Shown: in pieces, positions 35,357 through 50,285 of the stretch
Layout: every line of letters starts with the position of its first letter
How positions within the stretch are numbered: position 1 is the stretch's first letter
NCBI GenBank assembly: GCA_036376275.1
Contig: DASVAP010000014.1
Location: 23,839-87,838, forward strand
Length of the DNA: 64,000 bases
From: Planctomycetota bacterium
GTDB taxonomy: Bacteria > Planctomycetota > UBA1135 > GCA-002686595
Reading direction: 5' to 3'
Notes under the pieces: generated by a model
Seen by the model: the letters and a program-made list of their open reading frames with translations, nothing else
Told to the model about the DNA's origin: nothing
Database searches by the model: none
Made by a program: the position numbers and the translations under genes

Positions 35357-35403
35357 CCGGCGCGCAGGATAGTCGCGCGGGGGATCGCCCGGCGACGGCT
35401 GGC

Positions 35404-35910
35404 TCAGGGGCTGCCGGAGGGCCGGGACATCCAGCCCTCCCGGCGCAGGAACTCGACGATCGCGAACTCGTCCTGAACGCAGGAGTCGCTGGCGACGAGC
35501 TTCACGCGCGTGCAGTCGAGCCGCTCCAGCGAGCAGGCCGCCTCGGCCACGCGCACCAGGTCCAGCACGCGGTCCTCCAGGCGCCGTCCGGAGGGGTACT
35601 GGACGACGAGGTCGGTCCCGCCGCCCTCCACGGTCGTGAAGTCCAGCTCCTCGCCCGAGGCCTCGGGACAGGCCCGCAGGCGGATCTCGAGCCCCTCGTC
35701 GGCGAAGGCCGAGCGCGCCAGGAGCGCGGTCAGGCGCGCCCCGTCATGGGCGCGCAGGCGTAGCTCGAGGACCTCGACCCCGGGTCGCGACAGCTCGGGT
35801 CGCGGGAAGATCGCGAGCTGGCGGGGTTCCTTGGAGAGTCGCTGGAGCCGCGCGCGCCAGAACTCCGGGTCCATGAGAAGATGCCTCGAGGCGTCTCCGG
35901 TCAGACCCAT
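35404..35910 (-). CDS. hypothetical protein; weak resemblance to the N-terminal part of AXE1-type acetyl esterases but too short and without GxSxG
   Basis: 168 aa. DPEFWRARLQRLSKEPRQLAIFPRPELSRPGVEVLELRLRAHDGARLTALL resembles the AXE1 N-terminus. The nucleophile-elbow position reads VASDS, and the protein ends soon after. Confidence 0.45.
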   Translation of the reverse strand: MGLTGDASRHLLMDPEFWRARLQRLSKEPRQLAIFPRPELSRPGVEVLELRLRAHDGARLTALLARSAFADEGLEIRLRACPEASGEELDFTTVEGGGTDLVVQYPSGRRLEDRVLDLVRVAEAACSLERLDCTRVKLVASDSCVQDEFAIVEFLRREGWMSRPSGSP

Positions 35911-36083
35911 AGCGGCGCCCTAGCCGACGTGCCCCCGCTGCGCGAACGGCCTTTGTCAGAAAAGATCCGTCGCTCACCACCCTCGGTGGCGGCCCTGGGG
36001 GGGCGTCTCTATCATTCCTGCGCCCCGCCGCTGGCGCTCCGACCACACCGGAGCGCCCGGCAAACCCTTCCGCCCCTCGGAGA

Positions 36084-37433
36084 GTGATGCTGGCCGGTCT
36101 TCTCCTCTCTCTCCCCACGCCGACCCTCCCCTCTCCGCAGGCGCAGAGCTCCGGACCCACGGAAGGCGAGCGCATCGCGATCCGCGCCGAGCGCATCATC
36201 CTGCGCCCGGGCGTGGAGCTCACGAAGGGCACGCTGCTGCTCGAGCGCGGCGTCGTCGTGCGCGTCGGCCAGGACCTCTCGATCCCCGAGGGCGTGCGCG
36301 TGGTCGAGGGCGCCGTCGCCTGCGCCGGCTTCGTCGATCCCTGGTCGAGCCTGGGACTCGATCCCGACAGCGTGGGCGACCTCGGGGCCAGCGCGGCGAC
36401 GCGCTCGATCGACGCGCTCGACCCCTGGCTGGTGCCGGCCGAGCGGCGCGAGGCCCTGCTGGCGGGTGTCACCTCCGCGCGCGTGCAGATCGCGCGTGGC
36501 GCCCTGATCGCCGGCATCGGCGCCCTGGTGCAGACCACCGAGCGCAGCGAGCCGAGCGTCGTGCGCGAGGACGCCTGCCTGGCCGGGAGCGTCGGCGTCA
36601 GCCGCGGCGGGCGCACCGGCGACATCTTCGACCGCGCGGGCGAGGTGGACCGCCTGGTCGGCGCGCTGGAGAAGGGCAAGCGCTATCGCGAGTCCCAGGT
36701 CGACTTCAAGAAGGAGCTCGAGACCTGGACCAAGGCCATCGCCGAGAAGCTCGCCGAGCTCGAGAAGGACTTCAAGAAGGCCAAGAAGGACCGCGAGAAG
36801 GACGAGAAGGACGCCAAGGAGAAGGGCAAGGAGTTCAAGGACAAGAAGTACAAGGAGGACAAGAAGCCCCGGCGCCCGCGCTTCGATCCGGACGACGAGG
36901 CCCTGGCGCGCGCGGTCGACGGCGAGCTGCCCCTGGTGGTCGAGGTCCACCGCGCCAGCGAGATCCGCCGCCTCCTGGACCGCACGGCCGGCTTCGATCG
37001 CCTGCGCCTGGTCCTGGCGGGCGCGACCGAGGCCCTGGCCTTCGCCGACGAGCTGGTCGAGCGCCGGATCCCGGTGATCCTGTGGCCCGCGCCGATGGGC
37101 ACCTCGCGCCCGGACGAGTACGAGGGCCACGACCTGGCCCTGGCCGGCGCGCTGGCGCGCGAGGGCGTGCGGGTCCTGATCGGGAGCGGCGGCGGCGGCG
37201 ACGCCCAGGAGCTGCGCTTCCTGGCGGCGCTGGCGGTCGGGCACGGGATGGAGCCGGCGGCGGCACTGGCGGCGATCACCAGCGCACCGGCGGCGGTCTT
37301 CGACGCCGGCGATCGGCTGGGAACGCTCGAGCCAGGCCGCTCGGGCGACGTGCTGGTCTTCGACGGCGATCCGCTGGACACGCGCGCGACCCTGCGCGCC
37401 GTCGTCTCGCGTGGAGAGGTGGTGTTCCCGTGA
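36084..37433 (+). CDS. amidohydrolase-fold protein 1 of array (HxH lost; Lys/Glu-rich insertion)
   Basis: 449 aa. N-terminal sandwich RAERIILRPG...ERGVVVRVG. The HxH position reads AGFVDPWSSLG. Insertion: RYRESQVDFKKELETWTKAIAEKLAELEKDFKKAKKDREKDEKDAKEKGKEFKDKKYKEDKK. C-terminal LGTLEPGRSGDVLVFDGDPL. Confidence 0.8.
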   Translation: MMLAGLLLSLPTPTLPSPQAQSSGPTEGERIAIRAERIILRPGVELTKGTLLLERGVVVRVGQDLSIPEGVRVVEGAVACAGFVDPWSSLGLDPDSVGDLGASAATRSIDALDPWLVPAERREALLAGVTSARVQIARGALIAGIGALVQTTERSEPSVVREDACLAGSVGVSRGGRTGDIFDRAGEVDRLVGALEKGKRYRESQVDFKKELETWTKAIAEKLAELEKDFKKAKKDREKDEKDAKEKGKEFKDKKYKEDKKPRRPRFDPDDEALARAVDGELPLVVEVHRASEIRRLLDRTAGFDRLRLVLAGATEALAFADELVERRIPVILWPAPMGTSRPDEYEGHDLALAGALAREGVRVLIGSGGGGDAQELRFLAALAVGHGMEPAAALAAITSAPAAVFDAGDRLGTLEPGRSGDVLVFDGDPLDTRATLRAVVSRGEVVFP

Positions 37434-38635
37434 GCCTGGCCCTGTTCGTGCTCGCTTTCGCTCCCGGCGAGCCGGTCGCACCGCGCGAGGGCGTGCTGCA
37501 GATCCAGGCGGCCGAGATCTGGACCGCCGGCGGCGAGCGCATCCAGGACGGCCTGCTGCGGATCGAGGACGGTCGCGTGCGCTCGGTCTCGACCGGGAAG
37601 CAATCCGACCCCGCGCTGCCGCTCGTGCGTCATCCGGGCGTCGTCACGGCCGGGCTGATCGGGCTGCGCTCGCAGGCGGGCGTGGGCGGCGAGCTGCAGG
37701 AGGACACGCGCTCGGTCCTGGCGGAGGCGCGCGCAGTGCACGCCTTCGATCCGGCGCATCCGGACGTGGCGCGCGCGCTGGCGGCGGGGATCACCGCGCT
37801 CGAGCTGGCCCCTGCGCCCGGCAACGTGGTCGGCGGGCTGGCCTGCGTGGTCAAGACGTCCGGCGGGCGCGTGCTCACCAGCGAGGCCTCGCTCGCGCTC
37901 TCGCTGACCAGCGCGGCCCTGGGGCGCTCGACCGGGCCGTCCTTCTTCGTGTTCGGCGCGGCCGAGGTGCCGGGCGAGGCCCAGGCGCAGCCGGACGGCG
38001 GGCCCGAGTGGAGCGAGCGCACGCCGCGCGGCAACCGCGAGCCCACCAGCTACGCCGGGGCCCTCGCGCTCCTGCGCCGGAGCTTCGCCGAGGGCCAGGG
38101 GCCGTTCGCGCGCGCGAAGCGCGGCGACCTCGCGGTCACGATCGAGGCCTGGGACCGTCACGAGGTCCTGCGGGCCGTCGAGCTGGCGCGCGAGCTGGGT
38201 CTCGCGGGCGCGGTGCGCGGTGCGCCGCTGGCCGGCGATCCGGCCGTGGTGCAGGCCCTGAAGGAGAGCAAGCTGGGCGTGATCGTCGGCCCGTACTCCG
38301 CGGGCCAGACGCGGGCCTCGCTGGAGAGCGTGAAGACCCTCGCCGCGGCCGGCGTCCCGGTGGCCTTCGCGCTCGGCGATCCCGCGCGCTCGCCCGAGGC
38401 GCTGCGCCTGTCCGCCGCGCGCGCGCTGCGCGCCGGCGCGCCGCCGGCGGCGGTCTGGAAGGCGCTCACCGAGGACGCCGCGAAGCTGGCCGGCGTGGGC
38501 GCCTCGCTCGGGACCCTCGCGGCCGGACGCGAGGCCGATTTCGTCCTGTGGAGCGGCGATCCGCTCGATCTCCAGAGCCGCGTGGTCGCCGTCTACGTCG
38601 ACGGCCAGCGCGCCTGGCCGGCCCCGGGTCACTAG
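37430..38635 (+). CDS. amidohydrolase-fold protein 2 of array (HxH lost)
   Basis: 401 aa from GTG 37430 (GTGA overlap). The HxH position reads AGLIGLRSQAG. C-terminal LGTLAAGREADFVLWSGDPL. Confidence 0.75.
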   Translation: MSLALFVLAFAPGEPVAPREGVLQIQAAEIWTAGGERIQDGLLRIEDGRVRSVSTGKQSDPALPLVRHPGVVTAGLIGLRSQAGVGGELQEDTRSVLAEARAVHAFDPAHPDVARALAAGITALELAPAPGNVVGGLACVVKTSGGRVLTSEASLALSLTSAALGRSTGPSFFVFGAAEVPGEAQAQPDGGPEWSERTPRGNREPTSYAGALALLRRSFAEGQGPFARAKRGDLAVTIEAWDRHEVLRAVELARELGLAGAVRGAPLAGDPAVVQALKESKLGVIVGPYSAGQTRASLESVKTLAAAGVPVAFALGDPARSPEALRLSAARALRAGAPPAAVWKALTEDAAKLAGVGASLGTLAAGREADFVLWSGDPLDLQSRVVAVYVDGQRAWPAPGH

Positions 38636-38640
38636 CTGCC

Positions 38641-39837
38641 ATGCTGCTCCTCATCGCTCCGCTCCTCGCCGCGCTCCCGCCGGGCGACGACGACTGGACC
38701 ATCCAGGCCGCCACGGTCCACACCGTCTCCGGCGCGCCGATCGAGAACGGCTTCGTGCGCGTGCAGGGCGGCAAGATCGCCGCCGTCGGCAAGGGCGGCG
38801 GAGGCGCCACGCTCGAGTGCGCGGCGGTGACGCCCGGCCTGATCGACCTCGCGCTCGGGATCGACACGGGGCCGCTCTCGGTCGAGCAGTCGAGCGAGAC
38901 CGCCGCGCGCCTGAGCGCGAGCGACGGCCTCGACCTCTTCTCCTACCGCTGGGAGCGCGCGCTGCGCAGCGGCATCACGACCGCGCTGGCCCAGCCGGCC
39001 GACTACGACGTGATCGGGGGTCTCGGGCTCGTGCTCAAGACCGGCGGAGCCCCGACGCTCGCCGCGCGCCTGGTGAAGCCCGAGGCCTGCCTGCGCGGCG
39101 CGATCGGGGCCCAGCCGAGCAACGGCAACGCGATCCCGCGCTTCCAGGAGCCGCAGACCTTCTACTTCCGCCGCCCGACGACGCGCATGGGCGTCGAGTG
39201 GGTCTTCCGCAAGGCCTTCCACGACACGCTGCAGGGTCAGGGCGAGGACGATCCGGCCACGGCCGCCGACCACGCCGTGCTGCGCCGCGTCCTGGCGGGC
39301 GAGCTGCCGCTCGTCGTGCAGGCCAAGGCGACGCAGGACGTGCGCACGGCGATCTACCTCAAGGAGGAGTTCGGCATCCCGCGCCTGGTCCTCGACCACG
39401 CGATCGAGGCCTGGCGCGAGCCGGAGCTGCTGAAGCGCTCGGGCGTGGCCGTCATCCTGCCGCCCTTCACGGCCGACGGCCGGCACGCGGACGGGTTCGT
39501 GAACGACAGCTACTTCCTGCCGCTCGATGCGGCCCGGAAGCTGCACGAGTGGGGCGTGCCCTTCGCGCTCTCGGCCCACGAGGGCGCCGGCGCCGGCGCG
39601 CGCCTGGCGGACCAGGCGGCGGCCGCGCAGCGTGGCGGGCTCCCGCTCGCGGCCGCGCTCGAGGCCGTGACCCTGACCCCGGCGCGCCTGCTGGGCGTCG
39701 AGGCGCGCGTCGGCTCGCTGGAGGCCGGCAAGGACGCCGACCTCGTGCTGTGGAACGGTCCGCCGCTCCAGCCGACCTCGCGCATCATCGGCGTGCTGCT
39801 CCAGGGCCGCCTCGTGCTCGATCCCCGCTCGAAGTGA
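38641..39837 (+). CDS. amidohydrolase-fold protein 3 of array (HxH lost)
   Basis: 398 aa. Hydrophobic N-terminus MLLLIAPLLAAL. The HxH position reads PGLIDLALGID. C-terminal VGSLEAGKDADLVLWNGPPL. Confidence 0.8.
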   Translation: MLLLIAPLLAALPPGDDDWTIQAATVHTVSGAPIENGFVRVQGGKIAAVGKGGGGATLECAAVTPGLIDLALGIDTGPLSVEQSSETAARLSASDGLDLFSYRWERALRSGITTALAQPADYDVIGGLGLVLKTGGAPTLAARLVKPEACLRGAIGAQPSNGNAIPRFQEPQTFYFRRPTTRMGVEWVFRKAFHDTLQGQGEDDPATAADHAVLRRVLAGELPLVVQAKATQDVRTAIYLKEEFGIPRLVLDHAIEAWREPELLKRSGVAVILPPFTADGRHADGFVNDSYFLPLDAARKLHEWGVPFALSAHEGAGAGARLADQAAAAQRGGLPLAAALEAVTLTPARLLGVEARVGSLEAGKDADLVLWNGPPLQPTSRIIGVLLQGRLVLDPRSK

Positions 39838-39856
39838 GGCCGCGCCTCTCCAACGG

Positions 39857-41353
39857 ATGAACATGAAACGACTGCTCGCACCCGCGCTCCTCCTGGCCGC
39901 CCTCCTGGCCGCGCCGCTCCCGGCCCAGCAGGGCGGCAGGCTCGTGATCGAGGCCGGCCGCATCGTGACCCAGGCCGGGCCCGACATCGAGAACGGCCGC
40001 ATCGTGATCGACGGTGGCCGCATCACGGCCGTGGGCAAGGCCGAGGAGGTCGAGAAGCCCTGGGACGCGACCGTGATCGGCGGCAAGGCCTTCGTCGCCT
40101 TCCCCGGCTTCGTCGAGGCGCACACCTCGCAGGGCATGGATCGCGCCAACGAGAACATCGACGTCGCGCCGTTCCTCGACATCCGCGACTCGATCGACCC
40201 GGTGGCCTACTTCTTCGAGGACTGCCTGCGCCAGGGGATCACCACGATCAACGTGCAGCAGGGCGCCAACTGCGTCGTGGGCGGACGCGGCATGGTCGTG
40301 CGGCCGATCGGGATGACGGTCGAGGAGATGGCGATGCGTCCGCTGTTCGGGCTGAAGCTCTCGACCCGTCCCAAGGGCGGCAAGTCGCGCGCGACGCAGA
40401 TGCAGGCGCTGCGCTTCGCCTTCGAGGACCTGAGGCTGTACCTCGAGGGCCTGGTCGAGAAGGAGCGCGACGACGCCGGCTACGCCAAGCGCGAGGCGCT
40501 CTTCCAGGGCCGTGACCTGGAGGCCGAGGCCGCCCAGGGCCGGGCGATGGGCGGCACCGCCTGGAAGGTCGACGGACTCGAGCTGGTGCCGCGCGGGGCC
40601 CTGGACGAGCGCTACGCGCCGCTGCTCGAGCTGCTCGAGGGCCGCTACACCGCCTTCGTGCACTGCGGCGATCCGCTCGACGTCGTGCACGCGCTCGAGG
40701 TCGTGCGCGCCCAGGGGATCCTGGCCCGGACCGTGCTCGTGATCGAGCAGGACTGCTGGAAGGCCGCCGACCGCATCGCCGAGGCCGGCGTGCCGGTGAT
40801 CCTCGAGGGCGCGCTGCTCGACGTGCAGCGCGACCCGATCACGGGCGAGGAGGTCGAGACCTTCGTGCCCAAGGTCCTGCAGGAGAAGGGCATCCGCTTC
40901 GCGCTCTCCTCCGAGGACCCCAACACGCGCGCGCCGGCCTACCAGGCGGCCCTGGCGATCGCGCACGGGATGGAGCGCACGGCCGCGCTCGACGCCGTGA
41001 CCCGCGTGCCGGCCGAGATCCTGGGTCTGGGCGACGAGGTCGGCTCGCTCGAGCGCGGCAAGCTCGGCAACGTCCTGCTCTGCTCGGGCGACCCGCTCTC
41101 GGTCACCACCTGGGTCGAGCACGTCGTGATCGAGGGCCGGCTGGTCTACGAGCGCGCCAAGGACGTGCGCAACAAGCACCTGCTCGAGGGCGTGCAGCCG
41201 CTCGGCACGGCGCCGCCGACCTCGGCCGAGGCCGGCGAGGACCCCGAGCACGAGCACGAGAAGGCCGACGAGGACGCGGGCGCCGAGAAGGACGCCGGCG
41301 ACGAGCAGAAGGGCAAGGACGAGGACAAGGAGAAGGAGGACGGCGGACGATGA
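39857..41353 (+). CDS. amidohydrolase-fold protein 4 of array (HxH lost; acidic/Lys C-terminal tail)
   Basis: 498 aa. Signal peptide MNMKRLLAPALLLAALLAAPLPAQQ. The HxH position reads PGFVEAHTSQG. C-terminal VGSLERGKLGNVLLCSGDPL. The tail is EDPEHEHEKADEDAGAEKDAGDEQKGKDEDKEKEDGG. Confidence 0.8.
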   Translation: MNMKRLLAPALLLAALLAAPLPAQQGGRLVIEAGRIVTQAGPDIENGRIVIDGGRITAVGKAEEVEKPWDATVIGGKAFVAFPGFVEAHTSQGMDRANENIDVAPFLDIRDSIDPVAYFFEDCLRQGITTINVQQGANCVVGGRGMVVRPIGMTVEEMAMRPLFGLKLSTRPKGGKSRATQMQALRFAFEDLRLYLEGLVEKERDDAGYAKREALFQGRDLEAEAAQGRAMGGTAWKVDGLELVPRGALDERYAPLLELLEGRYTAFVHCGDPLDVVHALEVVRAQGILARTVLVIEQDCWKAADRIAEAGVPVILEGALLDVQRDPITGEEVETFVPKVLQEKGIRFALSSEDPNTRAPAYQAALAIAHGMERTAALDAVTRVPAEILGLGDEVGSLERGKLGNVLLCSGDPLSVTTWVEHVVIEGRLVYERAKDVRNKHLLEGVQPLGTAPPTSAEAGEDPEHEHEKADEDAGAEKDAGDEQKGKDEDKEKEDGGR

Positions 41354-44307
41354 GCGCTCGCCTGCTCGGCCTCGCGCTCGTCGCCGCGCCGCTCGGCCTC
41401 CTCGCGCCGCGCGCCGGGGACGGCCCGCCCGCGCCGGCCGGCCGCGGCTTCGTCGCCGTGCGCGCCGGCACGATCCACCTGGTCGAGGACGGGCGCGTGC
41501 TCTCCGGGGCGACGATCCTGGTGAAGGACGGCAAGATCCAGGCGGTCGGCGCCGACGTGGCGCTGCCGCCGGACGCGCTCGTCGTCGACTACGGACCCGA
41601 TGCGGTGATCGTGCCGGGGCTGGTGGCGGCCTACAGCTCCTACGCCCTCGGGTTCCCGAGCGAGCGCACGGCCGATCCGACCCTCTCGGCCCTGGACGCC
41701 TTCGACACCTACCGCGTCAACGGCGACGCGCTCTCCGGCGGCGTCACCAGCGCCTACCTCACGCCGGCCGACAACCGCCTGATCGCCGGCACGGCCGCGG
41801 TCGTCAAGCTGGCCGGTCAGCGTGACGCGGCGCGCGTGCTCAGCGCGGAGGCCGCGCTGCACGGCGCGATCGACGCCAGCGCGCGTTCCACGCCGGGCTA
41901 CTGGGACCCGCCCATCCCGGTCATGGTCGACGTCGAGCTCGGCTACGCGCGCCCGCAGCTCCCGCGCACGACCATGGGCGCGATCGTGGCCCTGGGCGAG
42001 CTGCTCGACCTCGCCGGCGATCCGGACGACGCGCGCCTGGTGAGCGAGTACGGGCCCCGCACCGGCCTCGCCCTGGCCCGCGCGCTGGCAGCCAAGGTCC
42101 CGCTGCGCCTGGCGGCCTCGGACGCGGAGGAGATCCGCGCCCTGCTCGCCTTCGCGGCCGAGCGGCGCGTGCCGCTCGTGCTCGACCGCGCCGAGGGCGC
42201 CGGAGCCGTGGCGGACGAGATCGCCGCGGCCGGCGTGCCCGTGGTCTACCGCCTGCCCTGGGTCCCGAACGCTCCGGCCGTCGACCGCGGCAAGGAGGAG
42301 GACGCGCGCTGGCCCACGCTCGACGTTCCGGCCCGGCTCGTGAAGGCCGGCGCGCGCGTGGCGATCACCGGCAGCTCCCCGCGCGACCTCTTGTTCGCGG
42401 CGCGCCTGGCCTCGCGCGGCGGGCTCGAGCCGGCCGCGGCCCTGCGCGCGATCACGCTGGCGCCGGCCGAGATCCTGGGCGTGGCCCAGCGCGTCGGCAG
42501 CCTGCGCGCCGGCAAGGACGCCGACCTGTGCGTCCTGAACGGCGACCCCCTGGCGTCCAGCACGAGCGTGCTGGCGACCTGGGTCGACGGCGAGGTGGCC
42601 TGGACGCCCGACCGGCACGCCCGCGAGGACGCGCGCGGCTCGCGCGCCACCGTGATCGAGGTCGAGGAGCTGCACGTCGGTGACGGTGAGGTGCTGCGCC
42701 CGGGGCAGCTCCTGATCCAGGACGGGCGCATCCGCGAGGTCGGCGCGCGCGTCTCGCACCCGCGCGGCGCCACCGTCGTGCGCGGCAAGACCTGCATGCC
42801 GGGGATGATCGACGCCTTCGGCCACCTGGGCCTGGAGGGCTCGCGCAAGGTGCCGGGAACCGACTTCACCCTGGCCACGATCCTCGACCCGGGCGATGCG
42901 CTCGACCGCCGCGTCGCCCGGCAGGGCATCACGACCGTCGTGCTCACCCCGCGCTCGGCCAGCGACAGCGGGGCCCCGGTCGCGGCCTACAAGCCCGCGG
43001 CGCGCGAGCTCGAGCACCTGATGGTCGCCGACCCGGCCGCCCTGCGCCTGCGCTGGGACGACCCCGTGCGCCTGCGCTCCGGCCAGAACGTGCGCGGCCT
43101 GCTCGCCAAGGCCCGCGACTACCGCCAGAAGTGGCTCGAGTACGAGCAGGCCATGGCCAAGTGGGTCCCGCCGGCCGAGCCGGCCGCCGAGCCCGAGAAG
43201 AAGGAGGACGAGAAGGCCGCCGACGCGAAGGAAGGCCAGACCTCCGAGGCCAAGGAGGAGAAGAAGGAGGAGTCCGACAAGAAGGAGGACAAGAAGGACG
43301 AGAAGAAGGACTCCAGGTCGAAGAAGAAGAAGGGCGAGCCCGAGGAGCTCGAGCCCGATCCGATCACCGGCCTGTGGCAGGCCGACCTGCCCCAGCCGGA
43401 GCCGGCCGCGCCGGCCAAGCTCAAGCTGCGCGCGAAGCTCGCCAGGGCCGGCGAGAGCGCAGCGGTCGAGGGCAACCTGCGCTGCGACGCGCTCTCGGCC
43501 ACGCTGATCGAGTTCGAGGGCTGGTTCGATCGCGAGGCGCGCACGCTGACGCTGAGCGGGGTCGGCAGCCGCGGCTGGGTCGAGCTCACGGGCGAGCTGA
43601 AGGAGGGCAAGCTCGCGGTCAAGGCGCGCGTCGACGGCAAGGAGCACGAGGCGACGCTCGAGCGCACCTCGAAGGAATACGTCGTCGCCGGACGCAGCGA
43701 GCGCGGCACAGAGAAGAGCGAGACCCCCAAGGAGCCCAAGGGCAAGCCCAGGGAACCCAAGCTCGACGGCAAGCTCGAGCCCCTGCGGCGCGCGATGGAC
43801 GGCACGGCGGCCCTGGTGGTCGAGGTCGAGCGCGCGCGCGACATCCTCGATTGCGTGGCGGCCTGCAACGAGGCCGGCATCCGCCCGGTGCTGTACGGCG
43901 CGCGCGAGGCGCACCTCGTGCTCGAGCAGATCGCCGGCAAGGTCGCGGGCGTCCTGCCCGCCTCCACGGTGGTCGTGGCCGAGGCCGAGCGCGGCACCGA
44001 CTACCGTGTGCCCTACGCCGAGCTGCAGAACGCCGGCATCCGCGTGGCCTTCCCGTCGGAGGCCGAGGAGGGCGCGATCGACCTGCCGCTGCGCGCGGCC
44101 TACGCGGTCGCGAACGGCATGAGCCCGGAGGGCGCCCTGCGCGCGCTGACGGCCGACGCCGCGGCCATGCTGGCGATCGACGGACGGGTCGGGCGCCTGG
44201 CCCCCGGGCTCGACGCCGACGTGCTGCTGCTGGACGGACCGCCGCTGGACCCCGCCACGAGCGTGCTGCGCGCGTGGGTGGCCGGCGAGGAAGTGGAGGC
44301 CCACTGA
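41350..44307 (+). CDS. double amidohydrolase-fold protein 5 of array (two tandem domains, both HxH lost; Lys/Glu-rich linker plus extra module in second domain)
   Basis: 985 aa with an ATGA overlap. Domain a has PGLVAAYSSYALG and ends VGSLRAGKDADLCVLNGDPL. Domain b has PGMIDAFGHLGLEG and ends VGRLAPGLDADVLLLDGPPL. The insertion reads DYRQKWLEYEQAMAKW...EPEKKEDEKAADAKEGQTSEAKEEKKEESDKKEDKKDEKKDSRSKKKKGEPEE. Confidence 0.8.
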   Translation: MSARLLGLALVAAPLGLLAPRAGDGPPAPAGRGFVAVRAGTIHLVEDGRVLSGATILVKDGKIQAVGADVALPPDALVVDYGPDAVIVPGLVAAYSSYALGFPSERTADPTLSALDAFDTYRVNGDALSGGVTSAYLTPADNRLIAGTAAVVKLAGQRDAARVLSAEAALHGAIDASARSTPGYWDPPIPVMVDVELGYARPQLPRTTMGAIVALGELLDLAGDPDDARLVSEYGPRTGLALARALAAKVPLRLAASDAEEIRALLAFAAERRVPLVLDRAEGAGAVADEIAAAGVPVVYRLPWVPNAPAVDRGKEEDARWPTLDVPARLVKAGARVAITGSSPRDLLFAARLASRGGLEPAAALRAITLAPAEILGVAQRVGSLRAGKDADLCVLNGDPLASSTSVLATWVDGEVAWTPDRHAREDARGSRATVIEVEELHVGDGEVLRPGQLLIQDGRIREVGARVSHPRGATVVRGKTCMPGMIDAFGHLGLEGSRKVPGTDFTLATILDPGDALDRRVARQGITTVVLTPRSASDSGAPVAAYKPAARELEHLMVADPAALRLRWDDPVRLRSGQNVRGLLAKARDYRQKWLEYEQAMAKWVPPAEPAAEPEKKEDEKAADAKEGQTSEAKEEKKEESDKKEDKKDEKKDSRSKKKKGEPEELEPDPITGLWQADLPQPEPAAPAKLKLRAKLARAGESAAVEGNLRCDALSATLIEFEGWFDREARTLTLSGVGSRGWVELTGELKEGKLAVKARVDGKEHEATLERTSKEYVVAGRSERGTEKSETPKEPKGKPREPKLDGKLEPLRRAMDGTAALVVEVERARDILDCVAACNEAGIRPVLYGAREAHLVLEQIAGKVAGVLPASTVVVAEAERGTDYRVPYAELQNAGIRVAFPSEAEEGAIDLPLRAAYAVANGMSPEGALRALTADAAAMLAIDGRVGRLAPGLDADVLLLDGPPLDPATSVLRAWVAGEEVEAH

Positions 44308-45587
44308 TGCTCTTCGCGCTCGTGCTCGCGCTGGCCGGCTCCGACCCGCCCGATCCCGGCGCTCCGGGCGGCTCCGGGCTGGCCCTGCTGGCCGCCAAGG
44401 TCCTGGCCGTGCCCTACCAGGGCCCGCAGGTGATCGATCGCGCCGTCGTGCTGATCAAGGACGGCAAGATCCAGGCGCTGGGCGAGCGCGAGACGCTCGC
44501 GATCCCGGCCGGCTACGCGGTCGAGGACCTGGGCGAGGCCTGGCTGACGCCGGGCTTCATCGACCTGCACTGCCACGCGGCCGGGGCCAACCTCTTCGCG
44601 GGCGTGAACGACCTGAACGACATGGTCTACCTCACGAACCCCGGGCTGCGCGCCTCGTCGGCGGTCGAGCCGTGGGTGTGGGAGATGCGCCAGGCGATCG
44701 CCGGCGGCGTCACGACCGTGCTCTACATCCCCGGTTCGGGCACGAACATCGGCGGCCAGGGCGTGCTCGTCAAGACGGCCTTCAACCACTACGAGGAGAA
44801 CCTCGTGCGCGATCCGGGCTCGATGAAGCTCGCGCAGTGGGGCAACCCCGAGGGCTGGGGTCCGGGCATCGGCATGGCCTTCGAGAACTGGAACACGCGC
44901 ACCGTGATCCAGCGCGGCGTGGCCTACGCCGAGCGCTGGCAGGCCCACGAGGAGAAGAAGGGCGCGAAGCCGCTGCGCAACATCGAGCTCGACGGCTTCC
45001 GCGACCTGGTGGCGGGCGAGATGGCCTTCTCGGTGCACACGCAGGTCTACCAGGTCGTCTTGATGACGATCACGATGCTGGCGGGCGAGTTCGGCCTGCC
45101 GGTCTTCACCGACCACTCCGAGGTCGGCGGCTGGCTGGCCGCGCCGGAGGCCAAGAAGCACGGCGTCCCGGCCATCATCGGCCCACGCAACGTCGACCAC
45201 GTCTACGCGCGCGGCTTCATCTCCTGGGCCCGCAACAAGCACGAGGGCACGCGCGGCCTGGCCGCCGGCTGGCAGTCGCTCGGCCAGGAGGACATCGGCT
45301 TCAACACCGACTCGCCCTTCGTGCCGGAGGAGGAGCTCTTCGTGCAGGCCACCATGGGCGTGCGCTACGGCCTGGACGACTCGAACCTCTCCTCGCTGCG
45401 CGGGCTGACGATCGTCCCCGCGCGCGCGGCCAGGATCGACGCCCAGGTCGGCTCGCTCGAGCCCGGCAAGGACGCGGACATCCTGGTGTGCGACGGCTAC
45501 CCGGTCGACCCGCGCACGACCGTGCGGCTGGTCTTCGTCGACGGCCGCCGGGCCTACGACGCCGAGCGCGACGGGCGCCGCTGGTAG
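44307..45587 (+). CDS. amidohydrolase 6 of array, catalytic residues intact
   Basis: 426 aa. Motifs: PGFIDLHCHAAG (HxH), SVHTQ, TDHSEV, IGFNTDSPFVP (beta-8 Asp). C-terminal VGSLEPGKDADILVCDGYPV. Confidence 0.85.
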   Translation: MLFALVLALAGSDPPDPGAPGGSGLALLAAKVLAVPYQGPQVIDRAVVLIKDGKIQALGERETLAIPAGYAVEDLGEAWLTPGFIDLHCHAAGANLFAGVNDLNDMVYLTNPGLRASSAVEPWVWEMRQAIAGGVTTVLYIPGSGTNIGGQGVLVKTAFNHYEENLVRDPGSMKLAQWGNPEGWGPGIGMAFENWNTRTVIQRGVAYAERWQAHEEKKGAKPLRNIELDGFRDLVAGEMAFSVHTQVYQVVLMTITMLAGEFGLPVFTDHSEVGGWLAAPEAKKHGVPAIIGPRNVDHVYARGFISWARNKHEGTRGLAAGWQSLGQEDIGFNTDSPFVPEEELFVQATMGVRYGLDDSNLSSLRGLTIVPARAARIDAQVGSLEPGKDADILVCDGYPVDPRTTVRLVFVDGRRAYDAERDGRRW

Positions 45588-45595
45588 GAACCGCC

Positions 45596-46891
45596 GTGCG
45601 CCCCGCGACCCACGCCGCCGTGCTCGTGCTGCTCGCCCTGGTGGGCGGCTGCCGCGCCACGGACGGCGCCGCGGCGGCGCGGCGCGAGGCCCTCGCGCCG
45701 CTCGCGCCGGGCGAGGCGGGGCTGGCGCTCGTGGTGGGCAAGCTCCTGACGCTCGACGCCGAGGAGCGCGTCTTCGACCCGGGTCTGGTGCTCGTGCGCG
45801 GCGAGAAGCTGGCCTACGCCGGCGCGCTGGTCGAGATCCCGGCCGGCTACGAGCGCCTCGATGCGCCGGACCTGTGGGCCTTCCCCGGCTTCGTCGACCT
45901 GCACACGCACATCCACGGCGCCGGCTGGTCCGACCTGAACGACATGGTGCGCCCGCTCAACCCCGAGCTGCGCGCGCGCCCCGCGATCGATCCGTGGGAG
46001 GAGCGCCTGGCGTACGCGCGCGCCGCCGGCGTGACGACGCTCTTCGGGATCCCCGGCAGCGGCACGAGCCTCTCGGGCTTCGGCACGCTGTACAAGCCCG
46101 AGCGCGACGCCGGCTACGAGGCGATGGTCCTGCGCGACCCGGGCGGCATGAAGATCGCCCAGAACTTCAACCCACAGCGCGGCGCCGGCGACCTGGGCGC
46201 CTCCTGGAGCGGCCTGGGCTGGAACCTCGAGTACCTGAACGATCGCGTGCACGCGGCCGCCACGCGGCAGGCTGAATCGGGCCAGGCCGCGGCGGGCCAG
46301 GCCACCCTTCCGGACTGGGAGCTCGAGAACCTGGAGCGCGCCCACCGCGGCGAGCTGCCGGTCCTGATCCACGCCGCCAGCGCCGAGGGCATCGCCAACG
46401 CGATCCGCATGTGGAAGCTGCGCTACGGCATGCATGCGGTGGTCTCGCACGGCTGCTGGGACGCCTGGCGCGCGGCGCGCTTCGCGGCCGAGACCGGGAC
46501 GCCCGTCAACGTCGGCCCGCGCACCGAGAACCTGCTGGCCATGCGGCGCGAGGACCGCTTCGTCGGCATCGCCGCCGAGTACGTGAAGGCCGGCGTGCCG
46601 CACGTCTCGCTCAACACCGACTCGCCCGTCGTGCCGCAGGAGGAGCTCTTCCTGCAGGGCACGATGTCGGCGCGGCGCGGCGCCGACCCCTACCAGATGC
46701 TGCGCGCGCTGACGGCCAACCCGGCGCTCGCCTTCCAGATCGGGGAGCGCGTGGGCAGCCTCGAGCCCGGCAAGGATGCCGACCTCGTGCTGGCCAGCGG
46801 CGACCCGCTCGACCCGCGCACCCACATCGAGCTCGTCCTGATCGACGGGCGCGTCCAGTACTCCCGCCGTGACGACGGGCCCATGCTCTAG
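45596..46891 (+). CDS. amidohydrolase 7 of array, catalytic residues intact, lipoprotein
   Basis: 431 aa from GTG 45596. Lipobox LALVGGC. Motifs: PGFVDLHTHIHG (HxH), VLIHAAS, VVSHGCW, VSLNTDSPVVP. C-terminal VGSLEPGKDADLVLASGDPL. Confidence 0.85.
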   Translation: MRPATHAAVLVLLALVGGCRATDGAAAARREALAPLAPGEAGLALVVGKLLTLDAEERVFDPGLVLVRGEKLAYAGALVEIPAGYERLDAPDLWAFPGFVDLHTHIHGAGWSDLNDMVRPLNPELRARPAIDPWEERLAYARAAGVTTLFGIPGSGTSLSGFGTLYKPERDAGYEAMVLRDPGGMKIAQNFNPQRGAGDLGASWSGLGWNLEYLNDRVHAAATRQAESGQAAAGQATLPDWELENLERAHRGELPVLIHAASAEGIANAIRMWKLRYGMHAVVSHGCWDAWRAARFAAETGTPVNVGPRTENLLAMRREDRFVGIAAEYVKAGVPHVSLNTDSPVVPQEELFLQGTMSARRGADPYQMLRALTANPALAFQIGERVGSLEPGKDADLVLASGDPLDPRTHIELVLIDGRVQYSRRDDGPML

Positions 46892-47053
46892 TGTCCTGAC
46901 CCAGAAGTTCGCATGCACCTTCCGCCGTCCTCCACCGCCTGGCGTCGTTGCTCCTCCTCGGCGTATCACCCTGGATACGCGGTCGTCGTCGCGCCTAGCC
47001 AGCCGGCGGATGCCGGCGGAAGCTGCATGCGAACCTCTGGGTCAGGACACTAG
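46888..47053. repeat. 166-bp element with 40-nt imperfect inverted arms (38/40 complementary) flanking an 86-nt spacer
   Basis: Arm 1 is 46888-46927: ctagtgtcctgacccagaagttcgcatgcaccttccgccg. Arm 2 is 47014-47053: cggcggaagctgcatgcgaacctctgggtcaggacactag. Mismatches occur only at 46906/47035 and 46918/47023. The spacer has its own 6-bp hairpin, cgtatc-accctg-gatacg. Arm 1 covers the stop of gene 7, and arm 2 abuts the AGGAG of gene 8. Confidence 0.9.
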
Positions 47054-47062
47054 GAGCCAGCG

Positions 47063-48391
47063 ATGCTCTCCCTCTTCCTCTCCAGCCTCCTGCTCGCGCC
47101 GCCGCCCGGCGGCGGCGACCTGGTGGCGATCCGCGTCAAGCGCGCCGAGACGATCGCCAGCGGTCCGCTCGAGCACGCCCTGATCCTCGTCGAGGACGGC
47201 AAGATCGTCGCGCTGGGCGAGGATCTGCCGGTCGAGCGCGGCATCCCGGTGCTCGACCGCCCCGACTGGGTCGTGACCCCGGGCCTGGTCAACGCCCACA
47301 CGCGCGTGGCCGGCGAGCGCTCGCCCGCGCGCCTGTTCGAGCCGCAGTCGCGCCCCACCTTCGACGTCGACCCGCGCCACGAGGCCTGGGAGGAGCTGCT
47401 CGAGCTCGGGATCACGACCGTGGGCTTCTACCCCGACGGCTCCGGCATCCCCGGCCAGGCGCTCGTGCTGCGCCCGCACGGCGAGACGCTGGCCGAGATG
47501 CTCGTGTCCGACTCCGCGTACCTGAAGATCCAGCTCCAGGCCAGCGCTTCCTCGAAGAAGGCCGTGCGCGAGGCCTTCGCCAAGGTCGACGAGTACCTCG
47601 AGAAGGTCGCCAAGGAGCGCGAGAAGTGGGAGAAGGACCAGGAGAAGAAGAAGAAGTCCTCCTCCAAGACGAGCTCCAAGAAGGAGGAGGAGAAGAAGGA
47701 CGATCCGAAGGCCGAGGAGAAGAAGGAAGGCGCCCTGACCCCTGAGGACGAGAAGGAGGAGGAGAAGCAGGACGACAAGAAGTCGACCGACGACAAGAAG
47801 GGCGACGTCTTCGTCCCGCCCGCGCCCGACGAGAAGGTCAAGCCCTTCCTCGACCTGCGCGAGAAGTCCCTGACGGCGATGATGTCGATTCGCAAGGCGG
47901 CCGACTACCTGCACCTCCTGGACGTGCTGAAGAAGGAGAAGGACGTGCAGTTCTTCCTGCAGTTCCCGCTGTCGGACGACGGCGACCTGTACGAGGTCGC
48001 CACGAAGATCGGCGAGAAGGGCCTGACCGTCGTGACGGTGCCCGAGGTGACGCTGCAGGTGAACAGCCTGCGCGAGCGCAACATCCCGGCCGAGCTCGTG
48101 CGCGCTGGCGCCAAGCTCGTGCTGACGCCGCGCTTCGACACCGTGCGCGGCCACGAGGACTGGCGCGCCGACGTCGGCCGCCTGGTGGGCCAGGGGCTCG
48201 CGCGCGAGGCGGCCCTGGCGGCGATCACGCTCGAGGCCGCGCGCGCCCTCGGTCAGGCGGAGGAGATCGGCAGCCTGGAGGTCGGCAAGCGCGCCGACCT
48301 CGTGTTCTGGAGCGGCGACCCGCTGGAACCGTCCTCGAAGGTCGAGGCCGTCATGCTGGGCGGCGAGTTCGTGGTGGGAGACGTGCCGTGA
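47063..48391 (+). CDS. amidohydrolase-fold protein 8 of array (HxH lost; Lys/Glu-rich insertion)
   Basis: 442 aa. The HxH position reads PGLVNAHTRVAG. Insertion: VDEYLEKVAKEREKWEKDQEKKKKSSSKTSSKKEEEKKDDPKAEEKKEGALTPEDEKEEEKQDDKKSTDDKKGD. C-terminal IGSLEVGKRADLVFWSGDPL. Confidence 0.8.
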   Translation: MLSLFLSSLLLAPPPGGGDLVAIRVKRAETIASGPLEHALILVEDGKIVALGEDLPVERGIPVLDRPDWVVTPGLVNAHTRVAGERSPARLFEPQSRPTFDVDPRHEAWEELLELGITTVGFYPDGSGIPGQALVLRPHGETLAEMLVSDSAYLKIQLQASASSKKAVREAFAKVDEYLEKVAKEREKWEKDQEKKKKSSSKTSSKKEEEKKDDPKAEEKKEGALTPEDEKEEEKQDDKKSTDDKKGDVFVPPAPDEKVKPFLDLREKSLTAMMSIRKAADYLHLLDVLKKEKDVQFFLQFPLSDDGDLYEVATKIGEKGLTVVTVPEVTLQVNSLRERNIPAELVRAGAKLVLTPRFDTVRGHEDWRADVGRLVGQGLAREAALAAITLEAARALGQAEEIGSLEVGKRADLVFWSGDPLEPSSKVEAVMLGGEFVVGDVP

Positions 48392-50010
48392 GCGATCGCA
48401 TCCGACGAAGCGTGATCTACCCCCTCTCCGCGCTGCTGCTGGCACTCGCCCCGGTGCTGGCGCCGATCTCCGCCCAGGAGGGCGAGGGCGGCGGCCCGCC
48501 GCCCGAGGAGGGCGGCGAGGAGGCCAAGACCGACGACGAGAAGGGCGCCAAGTACTTCGCGATCGTCGGCGGCGACGTGCACACCGGCACCGGTGCCGTG
48601 CTGCGCGGCGCGACGGTGCTGGCGCGCAACGGCAAGATCAAGGAGATCGGCTACGACGTCTTCGTGCCGCCGGAGGCCGAGAAGGTCGACGCCACGGGCC
48701 TGCGCGTCTACCCGGGCCTGGTCGCGCTCGGCGCGACCACGCGCCTCTCGCAGGGTCTGGGCGCGGCCGAGGGGCCGGAGCTGGGCGAGGACGAGTTCGA
48801 GCACCCGCACGACAAGCCGCGCGAGATCCAGTGGGACGGGCTCCTGCCCGTGGCGCTCGCGCCGGAGTCGCACGTCGGCGGCGACGACGAGCACCCCGAG
48901 CTGCAGGCCGAGGAGGAGGGTGCCGAGGAGGAGAAGAGCGAGATCGAGGACACCTTCGATCCCTTCAACTCGTTCCTCGTGCTGGCCCTGGCGACCGGGA
49001 TCACGACCGCCCAGCAGTCGACCGCGGCGGTCAAGCTCAAGCGCTACGAGATCGACGGCGTGCTGCTCTCCGACCGCAACCTGGCCAGCGTCACCTGGGG
49101 CCTCGCCAACCCGATCGGGATCCAGTCGACGCGCAAGAAGTTCGCCAAGGCCGCCGAGTACCTGCGCGAGCTGCGCGCCTGGCGCGCGCGCAACGACAAG
49201 AACGAGAAGGAGCCCAGCCGGCGCGGCGTCGACACGACGGCCCTCAAGGTGCTCTCAGGCGAGGCCCAGGCGCTGTTCCGTGCCAGCGCGCGCGAGGAGC
49301 TGCTCGGCATCGCGCGCTTCGCCCAGGAGCACGGCTTCCGCCCGGTCATCGAGGGCTGCGACGAGGGCTGGACCGTGGCCGACGAGCTGGGCCGCGCGGG
49401 CGCCACCGTCATCCTGACGCCGCGCGGGCGCAGCCCGAAGGACGAGCGCTTCGTGCGCCCGGGCGGGGCCTCGATCGAGAACGCCGCCCGGCTCCACGCC
49501 GCCGGCGTGCAGATCGCCGTGCGCCCCGAGAGCACCTCGATCGACTTCGTCGGCACGGCCGGGCGCGACCTGATCGCGCTGCCGGTCGAGGCCGGCTTCG
49601 CCGTGCGCGGCGGGCTCTCCGAGCAGGCCGCGCTGGAGGCGATCACGATCGTCCCCGCGCGCGTGCTCGGCATCGCCCACCGGGTGGGCACGCTCGAGCC
49701 CGGCAAGGACTGCGACGCGATCGTCACCGACGGCGACCTGCTGCACTACCAGACCTTCGTCCAGTACACGGTCGTCGACGGCAAGCTCGTCTACGACAAG
49801 GAGCAGGAGATCTACTTCGCCCACATCCGCCCGCGCCCGAAGAAGCCGGAGCCGGCGAAGGAGGAGGCCGAGGCGGCGGGCGCGGAGAAGGCCGAGACGC
49901 CCGCCGAGGAAGGCGCCGAGGAGCCCGAGAAGGGCGCCGAGGCCGAGGACGAGGACGAAGCCGAGGAAGAGGCCAAGGACGAGAAGAAGGACGACTCGAA
50001 GGACGAGTAG
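48388..50010 (+). CDS. amidohydrolase-fold protein 9 of array (HxH lost; acidic insertions and tail)
   Basis: 540 aa from GTG (GTGA overlap). Signal peptide RRSVIYPLSALLLALAPVLAPISAQ. The HxH position reads PGLVALGATTRLS and is followed by an acidic insertion. C-terminal VGTLEPGKDCDAIVTDGDLL. The tail is KKPEPAKEEAEAAGAEKAETPAEEGAEEPEKGAEAEDEDEAEEEAKDEKKDDSKDE. Confidence 0.8.
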   Translation: MSDRIRRSVIYPLSALLLALAPVLAPISAQEGEGGGPPPEEGGEEAKTDDEKGAKYFAIVGGDVHTGTGAVLRGATVLARNGKIKEIGYDVFVPPEAEKVDATGLRVYPGLVALGATTRLSQGLGAAEGPELGEDEFEHPHDKPREIQWDGLLPVALAPESHVGGDDEHPELQAEEEGAEEEKSEIEDTFDPFNSFLVLALATGITTAQQSTAAVKLKRYEIDGVLLSDRNLASVTWGLANPIGIQSTRKKFAKAAEYLRELRAWRARNDKNEKEPSRRGVDTTALKVLSGEAQALFRASAREELLGIARFAQEHGFRPVIEGCDEGWTVADELGRAGATVILTPRGRSPKDERFVRPGGASIENAARLHAAGVQIAVRPESTSIDFVGTAGRDLIALPVEAGFAVRGGLSEQAALEAITIVPARVLGIAHRVGTLEPGKDCDAIVTDGDLLHYQTFVQYTVVDGKLVYDKEQEIYFAHIRPRPKKPEPAKEEAEAAGAEKAETPAEEGAEEPEKGAEAEDEDEAEEEAKDEKKDDSKDE

Positions 50011-50018
50011 TCGTTCCC

Positions 50019-50267
50019 ATGCCCCCGCGAGCGACCCCTCTTCGCGCACGCGCGCTCCTGGCCGCGACCCTGGCCCTGCTGGCCTCGGCCTGCGTGAGCA
50101 ATCCCGACGGCGGCTGCCCGCGCGCCGGCGTCGAGACGGCCCGCCGCTGCAGGCGCCTGTGCGTGCTCGACCCGGGCCGCGCGACGATGCCGGTCTCCTG
50201 CACCTGCATGGCCGAGTGCATGTGCTGGCAGATGGCGGGGCACTCCCGCCGGCTCCCGACCCAGTGA
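50019..50267 (+). CDS. small Cys/Met-rich putative lipoprotein (82 aa)
   Basis: ATG 50019 lies 8 nt after the gene-9 stop. The translation is MPPRATPLRARALLAATLALLASAC (signal plus lipobox) followed by VSNPDGGCPRAGVETARRCRRLCVLDPGRATMPVSCTCMAECMCWQMAGHSRRLPTQ. Third codon positions are mostly G/C, as in neighbouring genes. It is part of a longer out-of-frame track ORF. Confidence 0.5.
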   Translation: MPPRATPLRARALLAATLALLASACVSNPDGGCPRAGVETARRCRRLCVLDPGRATMPVSCTCMAECMCWQMAGHSRRLPTQ

Positions 50268-50285
50268 CGGCGTCCCGGGTGCGGC

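Follow-up and report, generated by a model that had tools for sequence, protein, structure and literature searches.

Why should a bacterium keep, side by side and all in one direction, nine genes for proteins of a single amidohydrolase fold when most of the products have lost the residues of the active site? The locus that raises this question lies in a metagenome-assembled genome (MAG) of a Planctomycetota bacterium (contig DASVAP010000014.1), within a stretch of 64,000 nt, hereafter the window, whose G+C content is about 74 % and in which spurious open reading frames (ORFs) are abundant. The array consists of nine ORFs on the plus strand, from 36084 to 50010, which we named g1 to g9 and which translate without interruption. 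What appears to be new here is a conserved operon, found in at least two classes of planctomycetes, in which one to four live paralogues are flanked, in an invariable order, by eight distinct and individually conserved dead ones; the protein superfamily, and the theme of dead paralogues that serve live enzymes, are both known. On balance we think that the array encodes the subunits of one Sec-exported, hetero-oligomeric, peptidase-like amidohydrolase made up mostly of pseudoenzyme paralogues.

The same nine ORFs had been proposed in an earlier note on this DNA. Their start and stop codons are confirmed, and an independent gene caller based on codon-position G+C also chose all nine, the sole discrepancy being the start of g9, which it placed at 48412 instead of 48388. 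G+C in these genes is 0.95–0.98 at third codon positions and 0.40–0.49 at second positions. The note had assigned the products to the amidohydrolase superfamily, and all nine do pass the Pfam gathering cut-offs, with 29.7–77.5 bits against a cut-off of 25 for Amidohydro_1 (PF01979) and 31.3–62.9 bits against 29.7 for Amidohydro_3 (PF07969), g5 having two domains. A C-terminal block said to be common to the family (G[ST]L..G...D......G.P) is found in all ten aligned domains; its N-terminal counterpart, PG[FLM][IV], had likewise been attributed to every domain, but PG is present in eight of the ten and g1 and g2 have AG. The paralogues are old, as an all-against-all comparison gives mutual identities of 22–38 %, and only g6 and g7 are clearly each other's nearest relative.

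In the ten-domain alignment the six binuclear-metal positions (HxH, Lys, His, His and Asp) are kept by g6 (DLHCH...K...H...H...D) and g7 (DLHTH...) only, so the description of the array as dominated by inactive copies is borne out. Ligand conservation was followed through 34 array loci by assigning each domain to its best window paralogue and aligning all of them to one profile. The ligand positions are conserved in 56–58 of 58 members of the g6 orthogroup and in 23–24 of 24 members of the g7 orthogroup. The eight degenerate types, which we call P1 to P8 (g1, g2, g3, g4, the two domains g5a and g5b, g8 and g9 respectively), lack the ligand set and keep at most two of the six positions, both in the window and in 25–38 orthologues of each. 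Some of the replacements are themselves conserved and type-specific, namely Trp in P1, His-x-Ser and Lys in P4, and Tyr-x-Arg in P7. Profile alignments of such divergent proteins may set single ligand columns off by one or two residues, and misalignment probably explains the fifth ligand column in the relatives from Thermotogota and Clostridia. Judged by their residues, the eight degenerate types are predicted to be members of the fold and not competent metalloenzymes. These dead paralogues lack catalytic residues and yet are conserved under selection, and the degenerate subunits are conserved much as the catalytic ones are, with close-clade identities of 53–67 % for g4 and 53–57 % for g6.

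Conservation of the array extends far beyond this genome, and the gene order and number are kept in distant relatives. Homologues of the two-domain protein g5 fall into more than 120 database clusters at 51–94 % identity, all of about 950–1030 aa. On an 815 kb contig (L001) all nine genes recur with order and sizes unchanged, a 563 kb contig (L002) has an eleven-gene array, and a scan of one genome per species gave 80 loci. The order g1-g2-g3-g4-g5-g6(x1-4)-g7-g8-g9 recurs in about 30 Planctomycetota MAG loci, including arrays that share no more than about 30 % identity and whose records bear the depositors' labels Phycisphaerales, Pirellula, Gemmataceae and Brocadiaceae. ORFs in the related loci were taken from stop to stop and their N-termini are approximate. 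The complete genome of cultured Pirellula sp. SH-Sr6A (CP011272, 347615–368952, locus L083) has seven genes with nine domains, P4 orthologues are present in cultured Pirellulaceae, and an exhaustive P4 search of 1.84 billion representatives returned 244 clusters at E<=1e-30 and 2,960 at E<=1e-10.

In all 22 complete arrays (records labelled Phycisphaerales or Pirellula, among them the complete genome of one cultured Pirellula) the catalytic domains, one to four in number, are preceded by six dead domains and followed by two, and the window fits this pattern too. The eight dead types are always single-copy and catalytic copy number alone varies: eight arrays have one catalytic copy, four have two (as does the window), six have three and four have four. 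Beyond these 22, L007, in which P6 is split into fragments, has three catalytic copies, and L021, likewise, has four. Among four divergent groups of arrays, 2562 of 2953 best matches (87 %, compared with about 11 % by chance) fall at the same position, and for P3, P4, P5, the catalytic position (C) and P8 the figure is 99–100 %. A neighbour-joining tree, which is crude since it has no bootstrap and its distances are saturated, places each type in a separate clade and divides the catalytic copies between a g6-type and a g7-type clade.

The closest known structure is the same throughout. The top match in the PDB for every protein tested is 3OOQ, a structural-genomics entry from Thermotoga maritima of unknown function, by sequence for g1 (E-value, 6.5e-18), g2 (1.7e-25), g4 (4e-21), g6 (7e-34, over nearly its full length), g8 (3.7e-14) and g9 (3.8e-18), and by structure for g5; the PDB matches that follow have E-values 7 to 25 orders of magnitude weaker for most subunits. 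An AlphaFold2 model of g5, the one protein modelled, was built with 91 homologues and has a mean predicted local distance difference test score (pLDDT) of 86 and a predicted template-modelling score (pTM) of 0.69. Foldseek aligns it to 3OOQ with a template-modelling score (TM) of 0.82, and a (beta/alpha)8 barrel with an N/C-terminal beta-sandwich is thus supported. The matches ranking after 3OOQ, namely the Cc2672 carboxypeptidase, prolidases and isoaspartyl dipeptidase, have a TM of about 0.5. On this evidence the array proteins make up a 3OOQ-like subfamily of their own, which lies near the peptidase-like group of COG1228. The ligand set of 3OOQ is that of g6 and g7, and the array proteins share its helical, Lys/Glu-rich insertion site. 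Unlike the array, however, 3OOQ assembles from copies of one intact enzyme and has no degenerate partners; its PDB entry holds ten chains, and a docking benchmark paper classes the assembly as dihedral. Several related COG1228 entries have 8 or 16 chains, and with the ten of 3OOQ this makes the amidohydrolase fold appear habitually oligomeric. Neither this array nor a heteromeric 3OOQ-like amidohydrolase is described in the open-access full texts that we searched, an absence that is not proof, and no already characterized operon was found there to correspond to it.

The second-best matches, by sequence and by structure, are COG1228-type enzymes such as the Cc2672 Lys/Arg carboxypeptidase (3MTW), the Sgx9260b prolidase (3FEQ/3N2C), ochratoxinase/ADH3 and aminoacylases. 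They have the binuclear HxH/K/H/H/D chemistry in common with g6 and g7, and the substrates reported for COG1228 relatives in the literature are amide bonds to a C-terminal amino acid. They differ in that the structural-alignment identity is 12–19 %, the TM is again about 0.5 and equivalog scores are far below cut-off, and also in being single-gene homo-oligomers, not paralogue arrays. Two named identities were rejected on such scores. Against TIGR01224, the NCBIfam equivalog model for imidazolonepropionase (HutI, the name used in the JGI annotation), the proteins score 23–65 bits, where the cut-off is 298, and against the Xaa-Pro dipeptidase equivalog NF051886 of NCBIfam the best is 89.9 bits (g5), followed by 61.6 for g6 and 60.9 for g7, where the cut-off is 500. 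The likeness to Xaa-Pro dipeptidases and Cc2672-type enzymes is one of shared chemistry and not of membership, and the names 'imidazolonepropionase-like amidohydrolase' and 'atrazine chlorohydrolase' that databases give to array members are misleading.

The first gene, g1 (36084–37433, 449 aa), encodes P1, a degenerate subunit with an amidohydrolase fold by Pfam, a signal-like N-terminus and W.S/A/H/A/G in place of the ligands; it carries a low-complexity insert rich in Lys, Glu and Asp (36708–36905, at least 50 % of these residues per 20-aa window) that recurs in 21 of 22 P1 orthologues. The start of g2 (37430–38635, 401 aa), encoding degenerate P2, overlaps the g1 stop in GTGA, and is followed by g3 (38641–39837, 398 aa), which encodes degenerate P3, a type whose positional orthology among distant arrays is 298/298. 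The most conserved degenerate subunit is P4, the product of g4 (39857–41353, 498 aa), which keeps one His and the Lys and ends in an acidic/basic tail (41216–41350). The largest gene, g5 (41350–44307), encodes a natural fusion of two degenerate domains, P5 (aa 34–424; 41449–42621) and P6 (aa 434–985; 42649–44304). The catalytic subunit with the full HxH/K/H/H/D set is g6 (44307–45587, 426 aa), and g7 (45596–46891, 431 aa) is a second catalytic subunit and a predicted lipoprotein. Beyond it lie degenerate P7, encoded by g8 (47063–48391, 442 aa) and with a long Lys/Glu/Asp-rich insert (47567–47836), and degenerate P8, encoded by g9 (48388–50010, 540 aa), which has acidic inserts (48484–48564 and 48874–48972), an acidic tail (49837–50007) and a positional orthology of 297/298.

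Two kinds of feature set particular positions of the array apart. One is fusion: P5 and P6 lie in a single reading frame in 22 of 22 arrays, with 0–16 residues between the domain envelopes, and P1 and P2 are fused in three of the 22, all from a Pirellula clade, while no other junction is fused in any of the 22. Although 90 residues of the g5 model are disordered, its pTM is 0.69, which implies that P5 and P6 are packed in a definite way in the predicted model. The other is the occurrence of long Lys/Glu/Asp-rich low-complexity segments, which are position-specific and present in five of the eight degenerate types. Besides P1, they are found in 20 of 22 orthologues of P4, 22 of 22 of P6, 18 of 22 of P7 and 17 of 22 of P8, compared with none of 22 for P2 and for P5, one of 22 for P3 and none of the 50 catalytic copies. 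The segment in P6 of g5 is a Lys/Glu-rich loop (43156–43368), by composition and by a pLDDT below 50 at aa 613–663 predicted to be disordered. It is followed by an inserted eight-stranded beta module (aa 674–774; 43369–43671), a block with a pLDDT mostly of 84–94 that belongs to no Pfam family. By eye and unaligned, segments resembling this module are seen between the domains of four three-domain fusion proteins (P0278, P0296, P0341 and P0353), pointing to an accessory beta module that recurs in the subfamily.

The successive junctions measure −4 (GTGA), 5, 19, −4 (ATGA), −1 (TGATG), 8, 171 and −4 nt (GTGA), with a further 8 nt to an ORF of 82 aa, every one exactly as the earlier note had listed it. 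Stop and start codons overlap at four of the eight internal junctions, a Shine–Dalgarno-like motif precedes most starts, and the junctions in L001 and L002 are as tight as those in the window. The long gap, between g7 and g8, is occupied by a hairpin (46888–47053, 166 nt, not assigned to a strand) with arms of 56 nt that are 89 % complementary and terminal 27-mers that match bar one mismatch. Its predicted RNA fold has −116 kcal/mol (z, −11.2); no other inverted repeat in the window is as long, and there is a single copy of it. A search of 35800–50400 against Rfam gave no match. The same gap is 22 nt long in L001 and 10 nt in L002, and the hairpin looks like a genome-specific insertion similar to a miniature inverted-repeat transposable element, or else an mRNA processing or stability element. 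Because what fills the 171 nt gap is a hairpin inserted in this genome, and both L001 and L002 lack it, the array is best read as one ancestral operon, which favours the first of the 'one or two transcription units' suggested before. There are no promoter-like sites in 35300–50500, and terminator-like sites are at chance level.

The ORF of 82 aa (50019–50267) had been taken for a small lipoprotein gene that closes the array. Its codon-position G+C is 0.67/0.69/0.93, compared with 0.40–0.49 at the second position in the real genes; it has no match in Pfam or NCBIfam and no tblastn counterpart in 82 related loci, and it is probably spurious and no gene.

An extracytoplasmic location had also been proposed, and here the evidence comes from N-termini judged by inspection and hydrophobicity, both in the window and in independently called orthologues, which support it. 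Hydrophobic N-terminal segments are present in all nine proteins, and g7 does have the LVGGC lipobox noticed earlier. To the eye, g4, g5 and g9 have classic n-h-c signal peptides; in g1, g2, g3, g6 and g8 the N-terminus is hydrophobic but short and lacks a charged n-region. Orthologues called independently in L001, L002 and L083 mostly begin with textbook signal peptides that have Ala-x-Ala-type ends, and 19 of 20 called genes of L001 and L002 have signal-peptide-like N-termini. Hydrophobicity reaches 2.0 or more in 78 % of array N-terminal regions, for which the cytoplasmic-type pair controls number only four sequences and are too few. The g7 orthologues in L001 (LAGSC), L002 (LLVAC) and also L005 have a lipobox. 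A regular expression finds one in 3 of 14 last-catalytic copies and a search by position was inconsistent, and a lipobox is predicted here for g7 and these three orthologues only. The relatives examined in Thermotogota and Clostridia start at the first beta strand, and the one Thermotogota N-terminus inspected has no signal peptide.

Proteins of the Omp85/TamA and TamB families, which are typical of bacteria with an outer membrane, are encoded in the window as well, and because of these and of the signal-like N-termini the array proteins are likely to be periplasmic, or membrane-tethered via g7. A weak hint of expression and export comes from Tuwongella immobilis GMBLW1_16190, annotated 'hutI', a 96 kDa protein with two PF01979 domains for which the supplement of PMC8567305 gives a predicted Sec signal peptide and detection in the Tris-soluble fraction only. 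Going by that supplement it is probably a fused catalytic and dead pair of this subfamily, and no other evidence of expression was found.

Simpler versions of the same subfamily are found in other lineages. Two intact adjacent genes occur in Thermotogota, Clostridia and others, a catalytic gene paired with a dead gene in Acidobacteriota, Gemmatimonadota and some Planctomycetota, and catalytic–dead fusions of about 900 aa in Gemmataceae, Pirellulales and Kuenenia. The representative library at 50 % identity contains many proteins of 1,300–1,590 aa, and those inspected (P0268, P0272, P0278, P0280, P0284, P0296, P0300, P0341 and P0353) are dead–catalytic–dead triple fusions with a signal peptide, several of them with linkers of low complexity and a beta module similar to the one in g5. 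The pairs, fusions and triples of Acidobacteriota, Gemmatimonadota, Gemmataceae, Pirellulales and Kuenenia likewise join a live domain to one or more dead paralogues, although they have two or three domains and the array has nine to twelve. They are systems separate from the array, since both can co-occur in one genome: L033 and L078, an array and a fused pair, come from the same Gemmataceae MAG.

Some of the simplest versions lie near transporter genes. The intact pair of the Thermotogota locus L066 is situated between a TRAP (tripartite ATP-independent periplasmic) transporter and a complete peptide ATP-binding cassette transporter of the Opp/Dpp type; L074 shows the same linkage but is closely related to L066 and so is not independent, and in the Clostridia locus L053 Opp genes lie about 7 kb from the pair. 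No neighbour is enriched around the two- and three-domain versions: of 137 flanking genes searched with Pfam (218 families), no family occurs in more than three loci, and the surroundings therefore point to no function.

How these proteins might work together is suggested by their descent. The ancestor would have been a homo-oligomeric, 3OOQ-like, binuclear-metal amide hydrolase whose gene was repeatedly duplicated in an early planctomycete. Paralogues derived from a homo-oligomer would keep their mutual interfaces, so that the products could co-assemble. One or two types (g6 and g7) would have kept the active site and perform the chemistry, and the eight others (P1–P8) would have lost it and been retained, one copy each and in constant order, as structural or substrate-handling subunits that the particle could not do without. 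The particle would be periplasmic and possibly tethered to the membrane through the g7 lipoprotein. The ligand set, the nearest characterized relatives and the linkage of the simplest versions to peptide transporters together suggest that g6 and g7 would hydrolyse an amide bond, the most probable substrate being a peptide, a C-terminal residue or an N-acyl-amino acid. The dead subunits may shape access to the active sites, use their charged loops and the beta module to bind substrate or partners, and perhaps also anchor the particle. For the multi-subunit nature that the earlier note had ascribed to the system, the argument still proceeds from the constancy of gene order, the fused neighbours, the translationally coupled junctions and the oligomeric state of a homologue. 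Physical assembly and subunit ratios are inferred here, as are the kind of substrate and what the charged loops do.

Several observations weigh against a single hetero-oligomer. As each subunit carries an export-type N-terminus, the proteins could assemble only once exported, and the variation of the catalytic copies from one to four is a poor fit to a single rigid stoichiometry. The substrate is deduced from distant homology (scores against the Xaa-Pro dipeptidase model of at most 90, where 500 is required), transporter linkage is seen in two lineages only, nothing is enriched among the 137 flanking genes, the signal peptides were assigned by eye, and the association of the proteins is itself deduced from their genes.

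Precedents exist for parts of such an assembly. The aspartate transcarbamoylase of Pseudomonas aeruginosa requires an inactive dihydroorotase-like chain as an obligatory structural subunit (PMC7053772), and in that dodecamer, as proposed here, a pseudoenzyme of the amidohydrolase superfamily serves as a structural part. There, however, one dead paralogue accompanies an unrelated enzyme in the cytoplasm, whereas the array has eight dead types together with their own live paralogue, and export signals. The 20S proteasome, CCT and the COMMD heterodecamer (PMC13392464) are fixed sets of many separately conserved paralogues that arose from a homo-oligomer and are for the most part catalytically silent. 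These eukaryotic assemblies are an analogy only, since their folds and functions are unrelated and the array is bacterial and periplasmic and known here from its genes. In the 20S proteasome three of the seven beta types are active. If the products of the array do form one complex, it would to our knowledge be by far the most paralogue-rich bacterial hetero-oligomer.

A more specific arrangement, which we put forward tentatively and regard as quite unlikely, is a pseudo-symmetric (pseudo-D5) periplasmic decamer of five paralogous dimers, [P1-P2][P3-P4][P5-P6][C-C'][P7-P8], of which one would be catalytic. It would account for the constant number of eight dead types, for the in-phase position of both fusion events and for the ten chains of the homologue; extra catalytic genes would supply alternative catalytic isoforms. 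The position of the fusions is consistent with it, but there are two independent events and the probability of such phasing by chance is about 0.25, and the triple fusions weaken the arrangement in that fused neighbours need not be dimers.

The best of the alternatives to a hetero-oligomer, unlikely but to be taken seriously, is that the array encodes co-regulated but independent periplasmic proteins, the enzymes acting alone as homo-oligomers and the degenerate paralogues having separate non-catalytic tasks such as ligand binding, sensing or sequestration. A signal peptide on each protein would be expected of such a set, as would a catalytic copy number that varies independently of the degenerate set, and the degenerate types are only 22–31 % identical to one another, with replacements at the former active site that are conserved type by type. 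It is harder to see why independent proteins should be encoded by eight types that strictly co-occur in fixed order over deep divergence, with neighbouring types fused and stop/start overlaps at the junctions, and descent from an obligately oligomeric fold also speaks for association.

We think it rather improbable that the degenerate subunits are themselves the purpose of the system, forming an envelope scaffold that would act through the charged loops and the beta module in binding a polymer, the wall or the membrane, with the catalytic copies only processing or maturing something. The position-specific, conserved charged segments of P1, P4, P6, P7 and P8, missing from all catalytic copies, would suit a scaffold, as would the ordered beta module inserted in P6 and the ratio of eight degenerate domains to one catalytic domain in the simplest arrays. 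The absolute conservation of the catalytic residues and the up to four-fold amplification of catalytic genes argue instead that catalysis is central, and the array has no conserved neighbour for envelope biogenesis, TamA and TamB adjoining it in the window only.

These last two genes (50286–55924, minus strand; Omp85/POTRA, TamA-like, and TamB) are convergent to the array and lie between g9 and a Glycos_transf_3 gene (56022–57083). In 16 related loci the Glycos_transf_3 gene directly follows the array, and for this reason the TamAB pair appears to have been inserted or rearranged at this site in this genome. TamA/TamB, a SecDF-like gene and RtcB were rejected as parts of the system, and like the ORF of 82 aa they have counterparts in no related locus. 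On the other side, a small divergent gene on the minus strand (35404–35874, 156 aa), with no Pfam match and no signal peptide, has tblastn matches directly upstream of the array in 16 loci. Its product has an N-terminus that presumably resembles the start of acetyl-xylan-esterase-type hydrolases, without the catalytic domain. It is a conserved neighbour in the closer clade only and is absent beside distant arrays, and its membership in the system is doubtful. It was set aside together with DeoC and Glycos_transf_3, which are also conserved in the closer clade only.

DeoC, PNP_UDP_1 and Glycos_transf_3 genes flank the array in the window and in 14–16 loci of the closer clade, and this might suggest a role in nucleoside or nucleobase catabolism alongside deoC and purine-nucleoside phosphorylase. 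We find that very improbable, as the flanking genes have no match in the distant arrays L024–L039 and L052, nor among the called genes of L083, and DeoC, PNP and Glycos_transf_3 lack export signals, unlike the array proteins. The ligand set, moreover, fits amide hydrolases and not deaminases: nucleobase deaminases are mononuclear, whereas the binuclear HxH/K/H/H/D set belongs to amide and ester hydrolases such as dihydroorotase and the Cc2672-type carboxypeptidases. A tandem duplication that is recent and lineage-specific, with decaying copies, would in one genome look like tandem paralogues without catalytic residues, but it is refuted by paralogues that are 22–38 % identical with intact frames and strong codon-position G+C, and by orthologues of each type at the same position in arrays that are about 30 % identical.

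Two further observations concern neighbouring genes. In Pirellula sp. SH-Sr6A the array is immediately preceded, in the same orientation, by a PF04909 (Amidohydro_2) gene of a different amidohydrolase family (L083, 4514–5785); no such gene is seen beside the array in the window. At 32743–33213 (minus strand) an ORF of 156 aa, in a stretch of 78 % G+C, aligns with no more than the C-terminal half of the squalene/phytoene synthase profile (125–254 of 263) and may be a truncated gene, or its start may be miscalled.

If the array does encode one complex, eight individually conserved pseudoenzyme subunits would surround one or two live ones, a degree of diversification otherwise linked to eukaryotic machines, and should the arrangement as five dimers be true it would be a bacterial extracytoplasmic counterpart of assemblies in the style of the proteasome, CCT and COMMD. 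Planctomycetota are abundant in the environment and the system is widespread among them, and thousands of their genes are misnamed 'imidazolonepropionase-like amidohydrolase' or 'atrazine chlorohydrolase', most of which cannot be enzymes. Living intermediates are available in the form of a homomer, two intact copies, a live and dead pair, a fused pair, a dead–live–dead triple and arrays of 9–12 types, a series in which one can test directly how obligate hetero-oligomers evolve and how dead enzymes come to be retained. Such experiments are feasible, as carriers whose genomes are complete are in culture (Pirellula sp. SH-Sr6A and strains SH449 and SH501).

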